Positions 589 to 24,020 of a stretch of 30,225 nucleotides of DNA are shown here, in pieces. Source of the DNA: an uncultured archaeon. Its GTDB lineage: Archaea; Nanohalarchaeota; Nanosalinia; Nanosalinales; Nanosalinaceae. The notes under the pieces were generated by a model that saw only the letters and a program-made list of their open reading frames with translations, made no database searches and was not told the DNA's origin. Where the stretch lies: contig CAYQYU010000012.1 in NCBI GenBank assembly GCA_964421955.1, positions 1-30,225 on the forward strand, read 5' to 3'. A program made the translations under genes and the position numbers. Every line of letters starts with the position of its first letter. Within the stretch, counting starts at the first letter, position 1.

Positions 589-716
589 GCACTTCCAACT
601 ACACGGCACCAGCTTGAGCTCTAACATTGAGCTTTCTGCGCAAGCAGATGGCTCATCGCAGGAAATCTTTGATTTCCGAGCTCGGTGGATACGCTGTGGT
701 CGGACCTGTTATACGT

Positions 717-3821: not shown

Positions 3822-4537
3822 ACAGAGTGGCCTGGGCTGAACTCATACTTCCGTTTCATGTGGTCCTCCATGCCGAGCATGTACTCGAGCGAAGGAGGCA
3901 CGTAGTCGAGAACTGTCCCTATGAAACCGCGGTTGACCACTCTCCTTCCCGAGACCTGGAATTCCCTGTCAAGTACCACGGTCTCTCCCCGTTCTTCCAT
4001 ACGGGCCATCAGGTCATGGTCCTCATGGTATGGAAGCTCCTCGTCAAATCCTCCGACCTCCATGAAACTCTGCCTGTCGACAAACAGGAAATTGCCGGCC
4101 GCAACAGGTATGCCCAGGAACCGGACTGGTTTTACCAGCCGGGAACCTATTCCGAGCAAAATCTTGCCCCTGATGTTCGTGTCAAACGTCTTCCATGTGG
4201 AAAAGCCCGCGACCACTTCTTCCTCCTGCATCGCCTCATATACATCGGAAAAAACATTCTCGTGGAGAAGCTCGACGTCAGAGTCTAGGAACAGGATGAT
4301 GTCGCCCTCGGCCTCTCTTGCGCCGTGATTCCTAGCCTGGCCGGGACCGTCATCCTCACTCTCCACCACTTTTACGCCACGCTCACTCGCAAAATCGACG
4401 GTTCCGTCATCACTCCCGCCGTCTTTCAGTATAACCTCGTAGTCTTCAAAATCCTGCATCTCGATGCTGTCAAGTAAACTTCCAATATAGTCTATCTCAT
4501 TCTTCGCCGGTATAACTACAGATATCGCCGTCATCAC
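3818..4537 (-). CDS. Glycosyltransferase family 2
   Basis: ISVVIPAKNE, DGGSDDGT, ARNHGA, FLDSD, GGFDE and HEDHD motifs. Confidence 0.95.
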   Translation of the reverse strand: MMTAISVVIPAKNEIDYIGSLLDSIEMQDFEDYEVILKDGGSDDGTVDFASERGVKVVESEDDGPGQARNHGAREAEGDIILFLDSDVELLHENVFSDVYEAMQEEEVVAGFSTWKTFDTNIRGKILLGIGSRLVKPVRFLGIPVAAGNFLFVDRQSFMEVGGFDEELPYHEDHDLMARMEERGETVVLDREFQVSGRRVVNRGFIGTVLDYVPPSLEYMLGMEDHMKRKYEFSPGHSV

Positions 4538-5877
4538 ATATACCCCAGGTCTTCCAACCTCTTCTTTACCTCCTCATCCTCTTCTCTCTGTTCACCGGGT
4601 TCAACATCGACATCGGATATTTTGTCGACCTCCCGCTTAAATTCTTCCTCGACCTCGATTTCTTCGCCCGACTCAAGGTCGTACATCTTATACGACGTTC
4701 TCCCGTCCTCGGTCTTCGACTTGACTATCTTCTTTCCGTCCTTCTTGACATAGCGGAACTTCCTGTAGTACCTGTCCCAGTCGCTCTCCGGTATCTGGCC
4801 GAGAGACCCTGGTGCATCCGGGAACTCGACGCCTCCACGCACGTACTCTGGGTGAATCTCCTCCGGCTCTTCACCGATACCGGCGTAGTAAGGAACTAGC
4901 TCGGCAAGTTTCCTCAGCTCCACCATCTGCGGCCTTCTATCTGCCTCCCTGCCAGGGCGGTCCACCATCATCACAGTATTTATCACCGGCTCCATCACGT
5001 TGAACTGGTGCCCGAACATTCCCTCTTCTCCAAGCGCCTGCCCATGATCAGATACTATTATCACAACAGTTTCATCTTTCAGACCGTTATCCCTGAGATG
5101 TTCCATCAGGCGGCCTAACACGTCATCAGTGTAGTCTACAGACGCATCGTAGACCCTCCTGAGGTTCTCGAAATCATCTTTGCCTTCAATCACGTCCTTC
5201 TGGCTGTTGGGTATCGAACCGGTATCCTCCAATCCGTGCGCCTCGGAGTATTTTTCAGGAGGATTGTAGGGCTCATGGGGCTCCATGATGTTCATGAAGA
5301 GAAAGAAGCGTTCGTCCTCATCCACGTTATCTATGTATTTCCTCGCCTCAGATACTATTTCCTCGGTCTTGCAGGCGTCGTTGAGGTTGAGAAACTCGAA
5401 GGACCTGTCTACTACCCTGGTAATCGATCTCTTGACGGTGTTGCTCCTGTTGTCAAGGAACTTTGCCGCCATCCGAGAGATTTTGGTCACCAGCACGTTA
5501 TCCGCCTTTCCAAGGAAGTTCTGGACGTAGTCAAAGTCGTCCGTCATGTTCTTGTGCGGCGTGATCCAGGGATTGGTGGTTATACAGGCCGTTCTGTACC
5601 CCTCCTCCTTGAATTTCCGGACAAAGAGCTCCTTCTCTCCCTTGAAGTAGGCTCTCTGGTGGGTGGCGCCGTGCTCCCAGGGATACCTCCCCGTAAACAT
5701 CGATGCATGGGAGGGCAGACTCCAGTTTGCCTGTGCCACCGCGTCTTCAAAAACTATGGATTCATCAGCTATCTCCTGGAGGTTCTCCGTAAAGTCTATA
5801 TCATCATTATAAACCGATAGACGGTCTTTCCTGAGAGAATCCAGAACTATGAAGATCACGTTCTTTTGATCATACAT
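4534..5877 (-). CDS. Sulfatase-like / alkaline phosphatase superfamily enzyme
   Basis: NVIFIVLDSLRKD, WSLPSHASMFTG, EPHEPY, SDHG and the C-terminal RLEDLGY. Confidence 0.92.
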   Translation of the reverse strand: MYDQKNVIFIVLDSLRKDRLSVYNDDIDFTENLQEIADESIVFEDAVAQANWSLPSHASMFTGRYPWEHGATHQRAYFKGEKELFVRKFKEEGYRTACITTNPWITPHKNMTDDFDYVQNFLGKADNVLVTKISRMAAKFLDNRSNTVKRSITRVVDRSFEFLNLNDACKTEEIVSEARKYIDNVDEDERFFLFMNIMEPHEPYNPPEKYSEAHGLEDTGSIPNSQKDVIEGKDDFENLRRVYDASVDYTDDVLGRLMEHLRDNGLKDETVVIIVSDHGQALGEEGMFGHQFNVMEPVINTVMMVDRPGREADRRPQMVELRKLAELVPYYAGIGEEPEEIHPEYVRGGVEFPDAPGSLGQIPESDWDRYYRKFRYVKKDGKKIVKSKTEDGRTSYKMYDLESGEEIEVEEEFKREVDKISDVDVEPGEQREEDEEVKKRLEDLGYM

Positions 5878-5984
5878 CTATATCCTACAGAACAGCGGAT
5901 TCTTTTTAAGCTTATTAACACTAGAACACCGGAATCCCTGCGGCAGGGGCTACAGATAAAAAAATAACCCTTCATAGCCTAAAA

Positions 5985-6479
5985 AGGAGGCGGAGTGGCT
6001 GTCCCCGCTGGCGTTCCGTATCGCCGCATCTCTTGCGAGAAACGGCGGACGCATCCTGACGGATGCTCGACCCCATAGAACCTTGCGGTTCGCTGAGTGA
6101 GGAAAGTCCCGACACCTCGACGGGCAATAAGTTGCCTTTCGTAGAGAAGATCCTTGATCTTCGAAACGTGGCAGGTGCAAGACCTGTGGACCGAGAGGTC
6201 TCAGAGACACGCCTTAACTCGTTTAAAAACGAGGTAGGCGGCTCATTGAGCAGCAGAAACGACACGTCTCCTGTAATGGCCAGGATCACGGTAACGGCGT
6301 CAAAGCCAGCGTCGTGTGGAGCCAGTTCAGGAGGATCGGTGAAACGTGGCTCAGACACGGGGTGCAAGCCGAAGAGCGCAAGCACGCATTTCGAAGAAAT
6401 GCTGGTTTCCAGCAAATCTTCGATTTGCGTCGAGTCAAATGCGGCCATAGAAACAGAATCGGGCTTACTCCCGCCACCT
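5985..6479 (+). ncRNA. rnpB: RNase P RNA (about 495 nt)
   Basis: GAGGAAAGTCCCGA (6099-6112) pairs in P4 with ACAGAATCGGGCTTA (6453-6467); P1 AGGAGGCGGAGT/ACTCCCGCCACCT; P2 TGGCTGT/GCGGCCA; P5 CACCTCG/CGGGGTG; conserved CAGAAAC and TGAAAC. Confidence 0.93.
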
Positions 6480-6515
6480 GAAACACTTTTGAAGATACGC
6501 GACAAGGTTTAGAAC

Positions 6516-6677
6516 ATGGCGAACGACAACCAGGTCCAGATGCCTTCCTCACAGGGAGGACTGGTACAGTACTTTGATGCCGATGCAGGCATGGAGCTAG
6601 ACCCCAAGGTGGTCGTGGGGGGAGTTGTGGGAATCGCGATAATCGAAATGGGTCTGCACATGGGACTCTTCATTTAA
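6516..6677 (+). CDS. secG: Preprotein translocase subunit Sec61beta (53 aa, not in the ORF track)
   Basis: Manual translation MANDNQVQMPSSQGGLVQYFDADAGMELDPKVVVGGVVGIAIIEMGLHMGLFI shows the GLxxYF...LDP plus TM signature. Confidence 0.92.
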   Translation: MANDNQVQMPSSQGGLVQYFDADAGMELDPKVVVGGVVGIAIIEMGLHMGLFI

Positions 6678-6783
6678 CGCAGATTCTCTTAAGAGAAGAA
6701 GGGTTCGAGAAGTGAGCGAACGCGAGCTTCGATGTAGAGTTTATTTAAGAATTCTACTGGCAAACTTTCTCTAGACACCAACT

Positions 6784-6936
6784 GGACCCGTAGCTCAGCC
6801 CGGACAGAGCAACCGGCTTCTACCGAACTTCTGAAAGTTCGATCATCACGAGGCATTCCATGAATGCCTCTGGGTCGGCTTTTAGGGCTCTCGGCAAGAT
6901 ACCGGTAGGTCGAGGGTTCAAATCCCTCCGGGTTCG
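6784..6936 (+). tRNA. tRNA-Arg(TCT) with a 78-nt intron at 37/38 (6823-6900)
   Basis: Acceptor GGACCCG/CGGGTTC, D arm GCTC/GAGC, anticodon stem ACCGG/CCGGT with TCT at 6819-6821, T arm GAGGG-TTCAAAT-CCCTC; relaxed BHB; no encoded CCA; TATA-like TTATTTAA about 6741. Confidence 0.93.
6824..6848 (+). repeat. 25-bp palindromic module, copy 1 (inside the tRNA-Arg intron)
   Basis: CGAACTTCTGAAAGTTCGATCATCA, identical to 20976-21000. Confidence 0.95.
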
Positions 6937-6944
6937 AATCTCCT

Positions 6945-11375: not shown

Positions 11376-12014
11376 ATGCAGCGAATAAAATCCGGAATCC
11401 ACAACTTTGACCGTCTCCTGGGCGGCGGCATACCTGACAGAGAGCTCATACTGGTCAAGGGAGAGCCTGGATGCGGAAAATCCAACCTTGGAATGGAATA
11501 CCTTTACAGGGGCGCCCAGAAAGGAGAGAACGGTCTCTACGTTTCCTTCCAGGATACTGAGCCAGAGATACTCCGGACCACGACATTCGACTGGGACTTC
11601 GGGGAGATGGTCGAGGAAGACACCATCAACATAACCAAGTTCGACCCCTACAGGTACGAGCAGATCGCCAACATGCTTCGTTCAACTGTGAAGGAGAACG
11701 ACGCCACGCGCGTGGTCCTGGACCCTATAACCGATCTCGATCTGTATATTGATTCACGGAAGGACCAGAGGAAGAATCTCCTGAAGATCAAAGAGGAGTT
11801 GAAAGACCTTGGGTGCACAACAATTCTTGTTGCGGAGAAGGAAGAGGCCACAGAGCTGGAGGAGGAGATTGCCGACGGGATTGTGGAGCTTGAACTTCTG
11901 CGGAAAGAGGGCCAGGTCGAACGCCATATACTGGTGAAGAAGCTGAAAGGTTCAGACTATAACCACAGCGTCCATAGCTACATAATCAACAGCGACGGAA
12001 TAAAGATACAATGA
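11376..12014 (+). CDS. KaiC/RAD55-like single-domain RecA-family ATPase
   Basis: RIKSGIHNFDRLLGGGIP, Walker A GEPGCGKS, RVVLD, VKKLKGS. Confidence 0.9.
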   Translation: MQRIKSGIHNFDRLLGGGIPDRELILVKGEPGCGKSNLGMEYLYRGAQKGENGLYVSFQDTEPEILRTTTFDWDFGEMVEEDTINITKFDPYRYEQIANMLRSTVKENDATRVVLDPITDLDLYIDSRKDQRKNLLKIKEELKDLGCTTILVAEKEEATELEEEIADGIVELELLRKEGQVERHILVKKLKGSDYNHSVHSYIINSDGIKIQ

Positions 12015-12118
12015 CGCAAACCAGAGATTTGCTCAGAGCGAAGACCGGGTGGTCTTCTCTAAGCAGAAAACGCTACCTGTTTTCGAGAGACGAAAACACA
12101 TGCGGTGTTTTCGAATGA
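12010..12118 (+). repeat. Four-hairpin insert flanked by AATGA direct repeats, open as a 35-aa mini-ORF (12011-12118)
   Basis: Hairpins at 12016-12032, 12040-12057, 12066-12084 and 12091-12113; AATGA at 12010 and 12114. Confidence 0.75.
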
Positions 12119-13041
12119 GTGAAAGCGATCCTTTCCAGAGTTCTTTCAGGGCCAGGATCAAGAGGGCGATGCAGACAGATAATACCGCTGCAGCAGCCAA
12201 CGCTCTTTTTGGACCCACGGTTGACAGCCACAGCGAGTATTTCGAGGACCTGAAGACCGACATGAAGAAGGCGGGCATGGACGTGCTCTTCAGAACCTAC
12301 GTTTCGAAAATGTTCCTTTACACCATCGTGACCTTCATCCTCGCTATGGTCTCGGGAATTTTCTACACATTCATCAACTCTCCCGCTCCACAGACTGCCT
12401 TGAGACTGATAGTTGGCATGCCCTTCGCGCTCTCGATTCTCGTCCTGGGCGGGATGTACATGTACCCATCACAGGTCGCGAAGAGGAGGGAGAAAAATAT
12501 AGATGAGAACCTGCCGTTTGCGCTGAACCATCTGAGCGCGATCGCGACCTCGGGTATACCGCCAAGCTCGATGTTCCAGCTCCTGCAGGGCTTCAAGGAG
12601 TATGAGGGAATTGCGCAGGAGGCCGGAGAAATTTCCCGCAGAGTCAATGTCTTCGGTGAAGACCTCACCACCGCATTAAGGGAAGTGGCGGAGCGGTCTC
12701 CGAGCGAGGACTGGACCGAAGTGCTGTACGGCATCCTTTCAACAGTTGAAACCGGGGGAAATCTCGACGACTTCCTGAAGGAGCAGGCCGACGAGGCGCT
12801 TTTCGACTACAAGATGGAGCGCGAAAGAGAAATCGAGCGGCTCAGCACTTACGCGTCGTTCTACACCGCAATCCTGATAGCTGCACCGGTTTTCCTGGTA
12901 GTTATACTCGCGGTCATGAACCTGCTTGGCGGCCAGCTAATGGGCTTCGCCATCAGGGATTTGATGTGGCTTGGCGTCCACATAATCATACCTGTCATAA
13001 ACATCCTGTTCATAATATTCCTGACAATCAAGGTGGACTAG
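12115..13041 (+). CDS. Type II secretion system F family (TadC/PilC/FlaJ-like) membrane platform protein
   Basis: IDENLPFALNHLSAIATSG, FGEDLTTAL, ETGGNL, several TMs. ATG 12115 (GGTG 7 nt upstream) preferred over GTG 12049. Confidence 0.92.
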   Translation: MSESDPFQSSFRARIKRAMQTDNTAAAANALFGPTVDSHSEYFEDLKTDMKKAGMDVLFRTYVSKMFLYTIVTFILAMVSGIFYTFINSPAPQTALRLIVGMPFALSILVLGGMYMYPSQVAKRREKNIDENLPFALNHLSAIATSGIPPSSMFQLLQGFKEYEGIAQEAGEISRRVNVFGEDLTTALREVAERSPSEDWTEVLYGILSTVETGGNLDDFLKEQADEALFDYKMEREREIERLSTYASFYTAILIAAPVFLVVILAVMNLLGGQLMGFAIRDLMWLGVHIIIPVINILFIIFLTIKVD

Positions 13042-16552: not shown

Positions 16553-16668
16553 TGGCCGATCCCGGATTTGAACCGGGGACAACTGCATAACTGAACTATG
16601 TTCAGTGAAACGCCGATAGAATCGGCGTGTCTTCAGTGCAGCGCTCTCCCAGGCTGAGCTAATCGGCC
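16553..16668 (-). tRNA. tRNA-Phe(GAA) with a 42-nt intron at 37/38 (16589-16630)
   Basis: Minus strand GGCCGAT/ATCGGCC-A, GCTC/GAGC, CTGCA-CT-GAA-G|intron|A-TGCAG, CCCGG-TTCAAAT-CCGGG; BHB helix CTGA/TCAG. Confidence 0.94.
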
Positions 16669-20816: not shown

Positions 20817-20819
20817 GAG

Positions 20820-20973
20820 CGCCCAGGGCAGGGCTCGAACCTGCGACCACCACGTGTCTGCACCTTTTTTCTCGGCGTCAGCCGAGCACCGGTGGAACCG
20901 GCGATTGCGTGCCGCACTGAGCGTAACCAGGCGGTTTAACAGCGTGGCGCTCTACCTGCTGAGCTACCTGGGC
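20820..20973 (-). tRNA. tRNA-Asn(GTT) with an 81-nt intron at 37/38 (20856-20936)
   Basis: Minus strand GCCCAGG/CCTGGGC-G, CCACG-CT-GTT-A|intron|A-CGTGG, GCAGG-TTCGAGC-CCTGC; canonical BHB (CTGT/GCAG helix, ACC/GGT outer helix). Confidence 0.94.
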
Positions 20974-21200: not shown

Positions 21201-22331
21201 CTAGTCGAGGAACTCTTCGTTCTCGATTTTCGTCGGCAGGTACTCGTTGGCCACGAACTCGAGTGACTGCGAGGCGAGGGCCTGCTGCTCGACCCTTACG
21301 CCCATGTCGAGCATCTTCTGGAGCTGGTCCTGCCACTGCTTGGTCTGCATCCACTCGTACTCCATGACGTCTCTCGCCCTTTTGTAGTCCTTCGTCGGGC
21401 CGCCGTTATCTTCTGGCTTGCCCTTCAGGTTCTCGGTGACGTGGTGGAGGTCGTACTCGTCGATGTCCTCCATTGTCATGCCTACAAGTCGTGCGTCCGG
21501 AGTTGCGAGACGGTCGGACTGGAACGCCAGCGACATTGATCCCGACTTCAGCACTGAGTAGATGTAGTAACCCCATGGGTCGCCGTCCGTGAAGACGTAG
21601 ACAGGTAGATCAAGGCGCTCGTGCATGATGTTGATCAGCCTTCTCGCACCTCTCGCTGGCTGTCCTTTTGTACCGACGATGATCGCGTTGTGCTCCTTGT
21701 GGAAATCTTCTTCAACCAGCCTGTTGACCATCGCGTTGGTCTCCACGACAAGGATAAAATCGGCGTCGCATTCCACGAACTCATAGTGGTCGACGATCGA
21801 CGGGATGTTGAGCCCAGAAGTTCCCATCTCCATGCAGTCGATCTCGTCTCCGGAGTCGTTGATGACGACAGGTCCAAACAGCGATCCTTTCGCCTCCGCG
21901 ATCAGGTGGAGGTCTTCACGGATCGCGCCCGTGGCGGTTTCAATATCGACGATGACAGGATCAGATTCGTCCTGGTCCTCGAAAGTGTTCTCGTCGAGTC
22001 CCGGGACAGTATGCTTCAGCTGGTAGTACAGCTCTCTGATCGATGCTGTACGCCCTTCTTCCACGAACTGCTTTGCCTTCGATGCAACAAGCATCGTCTG
22101 CATGAACTTCCTAGCGTGAGATATGTTGAGGAACTTCCTCGACGAGTAGTTGTCCCCCAGCATCAGCCGTTCCTCGTCTTCGTCGTACTCTACATTCGAC
22201 TGGGAGCGGACCTTGGTCTCTATCTCAAGGTTATCCGACTCCGGATCCTCTAGCTGCTTCCTTATCTTCCTTCCCAGGTTTTTCAGCCTGTCAACTGTCT
22301 GCTCATCGTTCTCAAAGTCTTTCTTTGGCAC
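21201..22331 (-). CDS. top6A: DNA topoisomerase VI subunit A
   Basis: IRELYY (catalytic Tyr), FEDQDESD, ILVVET, KGQP, FTDGDPWG, EQQAL. Confidence 0.97.
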   Translation of the reverse strand: MPKKDFENDEQTVDRLKNLGRKIRKQLEDPESDNLEIETKVRSQSNVEYDEDEERLMLGDNYSSRKFLNISHARKFMQTMLVASKAKQFVEEGRTASIRELYYQLKHTVPGLDENTFEDQDESDPVIVDIETATGAIREDLHLIAEAKGSLFGPVVINDSGDEIDCMEMGTSGLNIPSIVDHYEFVECDADFILVVETNAMVNRLVEEDFHKEHNAIIVGTKGQPARGARRLINIMHERLDLPVYVFTDGDPWGYYIYSVLKSGSMSLAFQSDRLATPDARLVGMTMEDIDEYDLHHVTENLKGKPEDNGGPTKDYKRARDVMEYEWMQTKQWQDQLQKMLDMGVRVEQQALASQSLEFVANEYLPTKIENEEFLD

Positions 22332-22407
22332 TCAGAAATCACCTCTGTGATTTTCTGTGTCAAGAAGATCTCTGATCTTCGTCTGCTTCTTCATTTTTCA
22401 ATCACCT
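22332..22407 (-). repeat. Two-hairpin insert with a 20-aa mini-ORF (22394-22332), bounded by AGGTGATT direct repeats
   Basis: Hairpins at 22364-22380 and 22336-22353; AATCACCT on + at 22337 and 22400. Confidence 0.7.
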
Positions 22408-23992
22408 AAAGTTGCTCCGGGTTGTAGTCGGCTTCGACCATTGCCTGGATTTTCTGCTCGATTTCTTCAGGATCGCCCTCTTCCGCGAGTGAAGCAATCG
22501 CTGGCCCCATCTCCTTGGCGTAGGCGGTGAGCTTCCTTTTCTTCTTCTCCTGGATCTCTGCTCTCTCCTTCCGGCCAATGTAACGGCCGAGTTTTCTACC
22601 CGCCTCCTGTAGGGCGAGCTTCATCTCTTTCCGGATATCGTCGTAGTTAGCGATCGCCTCCTTTCCTTCTGACGTGAAAGGCACCCACACAGAGGCCATG
22701 TGGACCAGGATGTATACAGGCCCCTGAGGCCGATCGCCGGTCTGGGAGAGGTTGTAACGGTTCCAGGAGACTTCTTCTATAGCTTTTGTCGTGACACATG
22801 ACGACTTCTTGTAGAGCAGCGGTACCTTGTTCGCGAACCTCAGCTCGCTGTAGCTTCCGTCCTCCTCGATGTCTCCGCCGTAGGCCAGCCCGACTTCCAC
22901 GACGAAAGGGTTGCCCTTGTAGACCGTGGGCTTCCTCGTGATCGCGGTCGTGAACTCTGGGTTCAGCTCTTTCTTCAGTCCTTTGAGTATCAAATCTTCT
23001 CCAATCGGTGAGAGGCAGTCTGTCGGCGGCGACTGCAGTTTTACCCGCTGCGCCGCGTCAAGCAGCTGCTCGATCTCGTCCTTGCTCAGTGTGTTCGGCC
23101 TCCTGCCCGTGTCAACATCTGCCTCGTCACACACTTCTTCCGCAGAGGTTCTGCCCACGCGGGTGAACTCGCTCTGGAGGAAGCTGGAAATAGTCCTGGC
23201 ATCTGTGTCTTCTATCATCCTCATCATGATCCCGAGTTCAACGCCGTGTGGATGAGGCTTGATCTCCTTAGGCTTCTCGGGGAGATCCCTAGAAACGCGA
23301 GGGTACTCGATCTTGTTGCCGTCCGGCTCCCTCAGGACTACACGGGCGTAAGGATTCATGATCGCCGTGTGCTTCAGGTAGTTCCGGACCGAGTGATGGC
23401 CGCTCGTGTATTTGGCCTCTATATCCATCTCGATCGTGGTTCCGTGGTCAAAGTAGTAGTCTTTGTCTCCCGGGAACTCATCGCTGTCCTCGTCAACTAT
23501 CTCATCCTCGATAATCTCTGGCTCGTTCGCCTCAGTATCGATACGGACAACGAACTTGTGGCACGGCTCGCCCTCCTGCTTGGACCAGACTGTTACTGGT
23601 TCTCCTGTCGTGAGCTGTGCGTACATCGCGCTCGCACTTATCCCGATCCCCTGCTGTCCACGACTCTGTTGAAGCTTGTGGAACTTCGAACCGTAGAGAA
23701 GCTTTCCGAATACCTTCGGAATGTTCTCCCGGGAGAGCCCGATCGCGTTGTCCCTGATCTCGACCCGGCATTTCTCTTCTCCAATCTCGTCGATAAGCAC
23801 GTGGATCTCTGGAAGAATCTCTTCTTCCTCACATGCGTCCAGAGAGTTGTCGACGGCCTCCTTGACGACCGTGATTATTGATTTCTGGGGATTTTCGAAA
23901 CCTAGAAGATGCCTGTTTTTCTCGAAGAACTCCGCCACCGAAATCTCACGGTGATCGGACTCCTCAAGTTCTTGTTCTACTCCGTTTGGCAT
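22406..23992 (-). CDS. top6B: DNA topoisomerase VI subunit B
   Basis: ISVAEFFEKN, KEAVDNSLDA, SRGQQGIG, HGT, RFANKVPL, VPFTSEGKEAI. Start is ATG 23992 or GTG 24007. Confidence 0.97.
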   Translation of the reverse strand: MPNGVEQELEESDHREISVAEFFEKNRHLLGFENPQKSIITVVKEAVDNSLDACEEEEILPEIHVLIDEIGEEKCRVEIRDNAIGLSRENIPKVFGKLLYGSKFHKLQQSRGQQGIGISASAMYAQLTTGEPVTVWSKQEGEPCHKFVVRIDTEANEPEIIEDEIVDEDSDEFPGDKDYYFDHGTTIEMDIEAKYTSGHHSVRNYLKHTAIMNPYARVVLREPDGNKIEYPRVSRDLPEKPKEIKPHPHGVELGIMMRMIEDTDARTISSFLQSEFTRVGRTSAEEVCDEADVDTGRRPNTLSKDEIEQLLDAAQRVKLQSPPTDCLSPIGEDLILKGLKKELNPEFTTAITRKPTVYKGNPFVVEVGLAYGGDIEEDGSYSELRFANKVPLLYKKSSCVTTKAIEEVSWNRYNLSQTGDRPQGPVYILVHMASVWVPFTSEGKEAIANYDDIRKEMKLALQEAGRKLGRYIGRKERAEIQEKKKRKLTAYAKEMGPAIASLAEEGDPEEIEQKIQAMVEADYNPEQL

Positions 23993-24020
23993 AGTATTGT
24001 TTTTCACCTTGACAGTATTT

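Follow-up and report, generated by a model that had tools for sequence, protein, structure and literature searches.

A dispersed two-hairpin element at start codons of one nanohaloarchaeal family, with a small open reading frame that probably relays translation to topoisomerase VI subunit A

Short hairpin-forming intergenic repeats, often situated between the genes of an operon, are known as REP, BIME and REPIN repeats and as palindromic elements derived from IS200/IS605 (PATEs), and we know of no REP that carries a spanning open reading frame (ORF), a Shine-Dalgarno (SD) sequence or a start codon, or that is specific for start codons. Rickettsia palindromic elements (RPEs) lie in frame within genes, so that they are translated as part of the encoded protein, and in ermC-type leader attenuators and in the coat/replicase coupling of RNA phages, translation of an upstream ORF opens a hairpin that sequesters the SD sequence of the downstream gene. 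Mycobacterial interspersed repetitive units (MIRUs) were reportedly described by Supply et al. in 1997. According to the accessible part of PMC12548453, MIRUs insert at start codons and carry a coupled internal ORF; the same text refers to termination-reinitiation at overlapping gene pairs of Haloferax volcanii (Huber et al. 2019, 2023, cited therein). Here we analysed a stretch of 30,225 nucleotides from an uncultured archaeon of the Nanosalinaceae (contig CAYQYU010000012.1 of assembly GCA_964421955.1; referred to as the window), in which the genes for the B and A subunits of topoisomerase VI (top6B and top6A) are separated by a 74-nt spacer. This spacer is probably a copy of a dispersed start-codon insertion element of one nanohaloarchaeal family, with a mini-ORF relaying translation to Top6A. 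The element sits on start codons, mostly those of operon-internal genes, and by analogy it can be regarded as MIRU-like in function, not as a MIRU by descent.

In the assembly (G000; 0.92 Mb, 27 contigs, 98.8% complete) the window constitutes contig 12. At its top6B-top6A junction (Table 1) a mini-ORF lies in frame with top6A with only a TGA between the two, as the original prediction from the sequence had stated and as we confirmed to the base. Sequence and RNAfold analysis likewise confirmed the predicted repetition of AGGTGATT 63 nt apart, with the second copy located in the hairpin AAATCAC-AGAG-GTGATTT (hairpin 2). A further hairpin of the insert, absent from the original prediction, precedes it (hairpin 1). 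The insert proper measures 63 nt, from after the ATG through the GTG. The 3' end of the G000 16S rRNA reads GGATCACCTCC and is complementary to AGGTGATT, therefore both copies are genuine SD sequences; relatives with an empty site carry the equivalent TAG(A)GGTGAT-N5-7-ATG, which matches the first copy. In the ensemble fold, GTGATT of the second SD sequence is paired with p ≥ 0.98 and the mini-ORF ATG is unpaired with a probability of 0.80-0.93. No Pfam family matched the mini-ORF peptide, no tandem repeats were found at the junction, and at the gathering score of Rfam 15 the junction gave no match, the sole matches in the window being the 23S rRNA 3' end and three tRNAs.

Table 1. Positions of the junction features, of the second element copy and of tRNA genes with long introns. 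Positions refer to the window or, where a contig number (C) is given, to other contigs of the same genome.
Feature	Position	Strand	Description
top6B	22406..24007	minus	533 aa; ORF list and translation; Pfam Topo-VIb_trans 6e-64, HATPase_c
top6B stop TAG	22408-22406	minus	
First SD copy, AGGTGATT	22407-22400	minus	overlaps top6B TAG; native top6A SD, now presumably serving the mini-ORF
Inserted element	22329..22394	minus	66 nt, mini-ORF ATG to top6A GTG; alignments and covariance-model match
Putative pass-through mini-ORF	22332..22394	minus	ATG at 22394, 20 codons and TGA (22334-22332); peptide MKKQTKIRDLLDTENHRGDF
Hairpin 1, GAAGATC/AGA/GATCTTC	22364..22380	minus	perfect 7 bp; minimum free energy and centroid folds; -7.3 kcal/mol
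Hairpin 2, AAATCAC (22353-22347)/AGAG/GTGATTT (22342-22336)	22336..22353	minus	minimum free energy and centroid folds; -6.3 kcal/mol alone (RNAfold)
Replacement SD, second AGGTGATT	22344-22337	minus	inside hairpin 2; exactly 63 nt downstream of the first copy
Mini-ORF TGA followed directly by top6A GTG	22329..22334	minus	sequence
top6A	21201..22331	minus	376 aa, GTG 22331-22329; N-terminus (M)PKKDFEN like relatives; Pfam TOP6A-Spo11_Toprim 5.4e-57, TP6A_N 1.5e-16
Second element copy in the window, composite	12011..12118	plus	35-codon mini-ORF, three to four hairpins
tRNA genes with long introns, window	6783-6937, 16553-16668, 20819-20973		
tRNA genes with long introns, further examples in G000	C1:103601-103736, C6:15456-15630, C17:19-188, C17:5064-5251, C18:10533-10795		

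A Top6A match was obtained in 29 of 31 related genomes, and the junction was compared in the 16 genomes of the same family with both gene ends on one locus, the distance to the top6A start being counted from the last codon of top6B and including its stop codon. The junction measures 7-19 nt in nine of these genomes and 60-117 nt, with a mini-ORF, in the remaining seven. Among 26 named species representatives (at least 78% identity), a set that overlaps the family set, 13 have long spacers (54-164 nt) and 13 have spacers of 9-19 nt. The complete genome titled strain M3_22 (L151), for instance, has a 60-nt spacer, and Candidatus Nanosalina sp. VS9-1 (L147) has an empty site. The spacer is thus no lineage-wide feature, and the earlier proposal of a junction insertion holds. 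Even the closest relative (G007, 94% Top6A identity) has an empty site, TAACAGGTGATTAGAA-ATG. Every long junction contains a mini-ORF with its own SD sequence right behind the top6B stop codon, and since in-frame reading covers the top6A SD sequence (AGAGGTGA), these mini-ORFs end in R-G-D/E-x-stop or similar. In each of the 15 relatives whose alignment covers the complete N-terminus, Top6A starts at ATG-CCA-AAG (MPK...), and a GTG at that codon was found only in G000. Read-through into an N-terminally extended Top6A, which the original prediction had envisaged, finds no support, as the relatives all begin with MPKK at the same codon and the in-frame layout is not conserved: the mini-ORF stop is in frame with and adjacent to the top6A start in four of the seven filled junctions, offset by +1 in one and overlapping as TGATG in two, and a spacing of 0 occurs in only nine of 29 copies family-wide.

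Several of the long spacers look like one and the same old insertion that has lost part of hairpin 1, and others are composites of greater length. In a maximum-likelihood tree of Top6A with 24 rows, which excluded the G011 locus and partial loci, filled junctions are scattered among empty ones, with at least five changes when counted by eye. In four DNA runs from a single study, contigs of related organisms carry either a spacer of 12 nt or other inserts at this position; with flanks of only 25-28 nt and one run possibly being the source of the assembly, they are a weak echo of polymorphism and not independent proof. Relatives of Top6A in named records come from Candidatus Nanohaloarchaea, Nanosalina and Nanohalobium genomes. 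One record titled as a metagenome-assembled genome of Colwellia polaris (JBLGBK010000001.1, L153) contains a top6A gene whose product is 80% identical to the nanohaloarchaeal query, and its title probably mislabels the bin.

The top6 insert, interpreted in the original prediction as a device specific to its locus, is a copy of a genome-wide element. The units of this dispersed family have two hairpins and a length of about 55-65 nt, and longer composites also exist. Its members are laid out as an ATG, hairpin 1, a linker similar to CGCAGAAAA, hairpin 2 (GGAGGTG in the loop and 3' arm), a stop codon and the start of the gene. A strand-blind scan of G000 for hairpins of this design yielded 330 instances compared to 100-122 in five shuffled genomes, the arms GAAAATC (25 counts) and GAAGATC (7 counts) being predominant. 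The top6 insert matches C17:5185-5206, inside a tRNA intron, in 22 of 22 nt and C16:18692-18714 in 22 of 23 nt. Nine aligned copies gave a clear consensus, which RNAalifold folded into two hairpins with 12 pairs, eight of them with compensatory changes, and the covariance model R1 was built from this alignment. With R1, 34 matches were found in G000 at E ≤ 1 and ten at E ≤ 1e-3, six of the latter being training sequences and four new; the match at the top6 junction (22329-22386, 71 bits, E 4e-12) is itself a training sequence. At E ≤ 1e-3 the relatives yielded 83 further matches, distributed over 13 of 18 same-family genomes (0-13 each) and over only three of 12 genomes of neighbouring families, with one match each.

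Covariation was assessed on 49 matches representing 47 distinct copies. In this set 93% of the pair cells are paired, compared to at most 76% in slid controls, and compensatory changes were observed in 11 of 12 pairs, namely in all seven pairs of hairpin 1 and in four of the five modelled pairs of hairpin 2. Double-change cells numbered 71, compared to 12.4 in shuffles, none of 500 of which reached 71. Furthermore, copies at non-orthologous junctions are 75-87% identical, as in L32e-L19e of G000 and S4e-L5 of G016 (47 of 54 positions), S8-L6 of G000 and L19e-L18 of G004 (55 of 66), and LSm-L37e and C6:33148 within G000 (46 of 55). Such identity across different junctions is the signature of site-to-site copying and not of locus-specific evolution. 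The copy at C6:33148-33202 is a decayed one, 84% identical to the LSm-L37e copy, with a mini-ORF that ends early at a TAG in hairpin 2, which demonstrates that a copy can lose its relay ORF. In addition, a hairpin-1 module (GAAAATC/AGA/GATTTTC) was noticed between perfect direct repeats of 27 nt in G000 (C15:19330-19440).

Four of the G000 copies are located in the spc ribosomal protein operon (C3:63072-68442), at the junctions S14-S8, S8-L6, L32e-L19e and S5-L30, and LSm-L37e is among the further junctions with a copy. At the four spc junctions, most of the relatives examined, or all of them, have no insert. None of the 17 same-family relatives has the S14-S8 (67 nt) or the S8-L6 (71 nt) insert, their spacers at these two junctions ranging from -4 to 21 nt. 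Like the top6 insert, the S8-L6 insert comprises 63 nt from after the ATG through the GTG, and both rpl6 and rpl19e of G000 begin at a GTG directly behind the insert. Filled junctions vary by genome: L32e-L19e is filled only in G000, G002 and G008 among the family genomes, L5-S14 carries inserts in G005 and G012, L6-L32e in G005, S4e-L5 in G016 and G005, and L19e-L18 in G004. At L32e-L19e, genomes of neighbouring families (L048, L050, L051, L053, L055, L059) have a spacer of 170-200 nt, which encodes a small zinc-ribbon-like ORF of about 55 aa that contains two CxxC pairs and is missing from the family of the window.

The second copy in the window, near position 12011, lies between a gene for a KaiC-like ATPase (11376-12014) and a T2SSF/FlaJ-like gene (12115-13041), with an ATGA overlap at each end. 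This insert comprises 104 nt and is flanked by AATGA...AATGA; among 11 family relatives the junction is a plain ATGA overlap in ten, and G016 has a different mini-ORF there. R1 matches it weakly (12010-12065, E 0.08). The likeness between this insert and that at top6, pointed out in the original prediction, is real and due to membership in one repeat family, but the downstream start is the ATG at 12115, which overlaps the TGA of the mini-ORF, and not the GTG at 12119.

For the reading frame we inspected 38 strong matches, comprising all ten of G000 and those 28 of the 83 from relatives for which loci were returned. Of these copies, 34 immediately precede a same-strand ORF of at least 50 codons; the other four are not at a gene start, one lying past the 3' end of a gene, one after a tRNA gene and two without an adjoining long ORF start. 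An ATG-initiated ORF spans the element in 29 of the 34 gene-adjacent copies, and its stop codon is spaced from the gene start by -4 nt in seven, -1 in five, 0 in nine, +1 in two and other distances in six, i.e. within -4 to +1 nt in 23 of 29. The codon phase of the hairpin 1 loop is 1 in 16 copies (read as ENQRFS), 0 in nine (KIRDF/L) and 2 in two (KSEIF). What is conserved is the open frame and not the peptide, and the RDLL common to the top6 and 12011 inserts therefore reflects one of the three frames in which hairpin 1 can be read. Spanning ORFs that are kept in three frames and end at the gene start make it plausible, as far as sequence can, that translation of the mini-ORF unmasks the downstream SD sequence, as originally suggested.

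Start codons were tallied for the top6 site and five junctions of the spc operon (70 junctions in total), using only alignments that reach residue 1. The downstream gene starts with GTG at five of 14 filled sites versus two of 56 empty sites, in genomes that are related to each other, and we claim no formal test. The tally fits a native ATG that now opens the mini-ORF, with the 3' end of the element providing the SD sequence and often the GTG.

These observations suggest the following mechanism. Upon insertion, the gene's own SD sequence and ATG would start a short pass-through ORF across both hairpins, and the 3' hairpin would supply a replacement SD sequence and, at top6, also a replacement GTG start. 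Hairpin 2 is expected to limit direct initiation at that GTG. Ribosomes would initiate at the exposed native SD sequence and ATG and translate through both hairpins, thereby melting hairpin 2. Termination would occur 0 nt from the top6A start (-4 to +1 nt elsewhere), where the 30S subunit or the whole ribosome could reinitiate with the aid of the freed SD sequence. Top6A might thus be made by termination-reinitiation, by SD unmasking or by both, and the insertion would be cheap. As topoisomerase VI is an A2B2 enzyme, selection for the coupling of A to B is plausible. Coupling fades above a spacing of about 30 nt in Haloferax volcanii and Escherichia coli (accessible part of PMC12548453), which is why a bridging relay ORF would be needed in a top6 insert of 60-100 nt.

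Insofar as the accessible text of PMC12548453 describes them, MIRUs resemble the nanohaloarchaeal element in being short dispersed repeats at start codons within operons, oriented with the gene and polymorphic between genomes, with a small ORF that ends on or at the downstream start; the resulting coupled translation is the presumed reason for the tolerance of both. However, MIRUs are actinobacterial and the present element is archaeal (Nanohaloarchaeota), and homology across domains is not expected. The nanohaloarchaeal element is found singly, in units of about 55-65 nt, or in composites that combine different hairpin modules, without tandem arrays, it is defined by two covarying hairpins of which the 3' one bears the replacement SD sequence, and its spacing is -4, -1, 0 or +1, whereas that of MIRUs is fixed at -4. 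The stop/start arrangements (ATGA, TAATG, TGA-ATG) and the expected second step are also those of Haloferax coupling, insofar as the same source covers it; there, however, native gene pairs are coupled, and here a parasitic or neutral mini-cistron seems to be interposed that would relay the coupling. With RPEs the element shares the small palindromic form, the occurrence in reduced genomes of host-dependent cells and survival by staying translatable, but RPEs end up in the protein and this element forms a separate mini-cistron before the gene. A short upstream ORF that opens an SD-hiding hairpin is also a feature of the ermC-type leaders and RNA phages, but the ORF described here reads through the hairpin and ends at the start codon, with no need for stalling or an inducer, and the device is a multi-copy insert and not a locus-specific regulator. 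Likeness to REPs and PATEs lies in short hairpin-forming intergenic repeats, often inside operons.

In the accessible parts of the literature on Nanohaloarchaeota, DPANN and archaea, including PMC10266531 and PMC11602168, we found no description of such elements, although the supplementary tables of miniature inverted-repeat transposable elements in PMC11602168 could list them. If the interpretation is correct, the element would be an archaeal counterpart of MIRUs that survives in an operon-dense symbiont genome of 0.9 Mb by means of its own ribosome-binding site and relayed coupling, and that invades even the ribosomal protein operon. The filled and empty sites would offer natural allele pairs for the study of termination-reinitiation and SD occlusion in archaea. 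Moreover, gene callers may annotate such ORFs of 15-35 codons as hypothetical proteins or misplace the starts of essential genes. The element also raises the question of how 60 nt can spread without a transposase in sight.

Several points weigh against the reading of the spacer as a dispersed relay element. The whole 106-nt junction folds barely better than its shuffles (z -1.17, with 20 of 200 shuffled sequences folding equally well) and hairpin 2 is weak; folding energy by itself is unconvincing for a structure at this junction, and it is the comparative evidence that convinces. The covariation alignment was fitted to R1 and hence leans toward structure, R1 was trained on copies with ORFs, SD sequences and start codons and its matches are biased toward gene starts, and the genomes are related, so that the counts are not independent. 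Five of the 34 gene-adjacent copies lack a spanning ATG-initiated ORF and a few mini-ORFs stop 6-7 nt early, therefore the ORF is not obligatory. At the top6 site, the inserts of many genomes look like decayed forms of one old insertion, and the pattern may be due to ancient gain and repeated loss rather than to recent mobility. Finally, no partner transposase was found. The Y1 transposase (Y1_Tnp, PF01797; RAYT/TnpA) was found in none of the 31 genomes searched, TnpB (PF07282) exceeded the cut-off in five of the 31, three of which have no element matches, and is unrelated to copy number, OrfB_IS605 (PF01385) and rve were not found in G000, and the only DDE_Tnp_1 sequence of G000 is a fragment at a contig end. 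An origin from IS200/IS605, REP or PATE elements was rejected on the Y1 and TnpB results, which set the family apart from REPs and PATEs. By eye, and without an inverted-repeat tool, no clear terminal inverted repeat was seen. The inserts are flanked by direct repeats (AGGTGATT at top6 and AATGA at 12011), which are themselves also SD or start motifs, and one may speculate that the element spreads by recombination through the SD-start motif at its two ends, which would also allow clean loss.

The spacer could alternatively be an adaptive cis-regulatory leader, i.e. an attenuator or a binding site for a protein or RNA, that tunes the ratio of Top6A to Top6B or co-regulates operon-internal genes. 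Conservation of the hairpins with covariation, the predicted fold with its sequestered SD sequence and open leader start, and the retention of a filled top6 junction in about half of the family would suit such a role. Some sites are moreover filled across several genera: that at the gene whose product begins M[QK]EK[KQ]FI.KGAR is filled in G017 and G013 and its likely ortholog (VIEKQFVQDNIK) in G025, a second gene is filled in G013 and G009, and a Spt4-like gene in G010 and G012. However, the closest relative and about half of the family lack the top6 insert while their genes are unchanged, the same element precedes genes as unrelated as those for ribosomal proteins, topoisomerase VI A and a pilus or archaellum membrane protein, the set of filled junctions differs between genomes, and decayed copies exist (the premature stop at C6:33148, truncated hairpin 1 at top6 sites). 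We regard a leader function as unlikely; it would be compatible with a mobile origin.

Modules of the element also occur in stable RNA genes. ARAGORN called introns of 42-190 nt in 29 of 40 predicted tRNA genes of G000, built of recurring hairpin modules, several of which are the same as in the junction elements, mostly in opposite orientation. R1 matches within tRNA genes are mostly antisense to the tRNA (about five of six intron matches by our own tally) and weak (19-30 bits), and weak to moderate antisense matches lie just 3' of the 16S rRNA (C16:18687-18745, plus strand) and of the 23S rRNA (window 632-683, minus strand; 23S rRNA at 1-595). Start-codon cassettes, the long modular tRNA introns and rRNA trailers of these genomes thus seem to draw on one pool of hairpin modules, the junction copies being sense to the mRNA and most of the intron copies antisense. 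Should this be more than a shared colonisation of safe sites, excised introns might pair in trans with junction hairpins and so set translation of scattered operon-internal genes (those for ribosomal proteins and topoisomerase VI A), or the element might spread without a transposase by recombination at SD-start motifs; we consider this reading conceivable but decidedly unlikely.

That the mini-ORF encodes a functional microprotein, for example a third peptide associated with topoisomerase VI, is very improbable. It has its own SD sequence and ATG, and an N-terminal TKIRDLL is common to the top6 inserts of G000, G016 and, in part, G002. However, depending on the copy, hairpin 1 reads as ENQRFS, KIRDF or KSEIF, so that the shared residues are this hairpin in frame. 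The C-terminal RGD/E is the SD sequence in frame, the peptide has no Pfam family and half of the relatives lack it. The microprotein was rejected on the three frames of hairpin 1; a genome-wide scan for peptide motifs was too noisy for use.

Equally improbable is that the insert is spliced out as an archaeal bulge-helix-bulge intron, or otherwise processed, so that the mature mRNA has a short junction. The direct repeat of AGGTGATT and the identical hairpin modules in the unusually long tRNA introns, including the match of 22 nt, speak for it. Against it, both predicted structures are plain stem-loops with no bulge-helix-bulge in the fold (no dedicated search for this motif was run), ORF integrity is kept in three frames, which would be pointless in a spliced-out sequence, and the copies in tRNA introns are mostly in the opposite orientation. 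Least credible of all is a chance spacer with SD lookalikes and a coincidental hairpin, for which the folding z of only -1.17 and the expected resemblance between SD sequences could be cited, but which is at odds with the 71-bit R1 match (albeit of a training sequence), the strong matches elsewhere at 75-87% identity and unrelated junctions, and the covariation well above controls.

Further observations concern the stable RNA genes and one intergenic region. Two of the tRNA introns (Trp and Met) look like carriers of box C/D guide RNAs. At the tRNA-Lys (C1:103601-103800) and tRNA-Ser (C3:73245-73520) genes of G000, a hairpin module is followed by a second copy of the tRNA 3' end, and these duplicated ends resemble an integration scar or an alternative 3' half. 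In the window, the region 5880-6510 between a gene of 447 aa (4534-5877, minus strand) and a Sec61-beta-like ORF (6516-6677, plus strand) contains long ORFs of odd composition on both strands. This region has no Rfam match and a weak element match (6387-6434, minus strand), and it may represent a divergent non-coding RNA or a fast-evolving gene.

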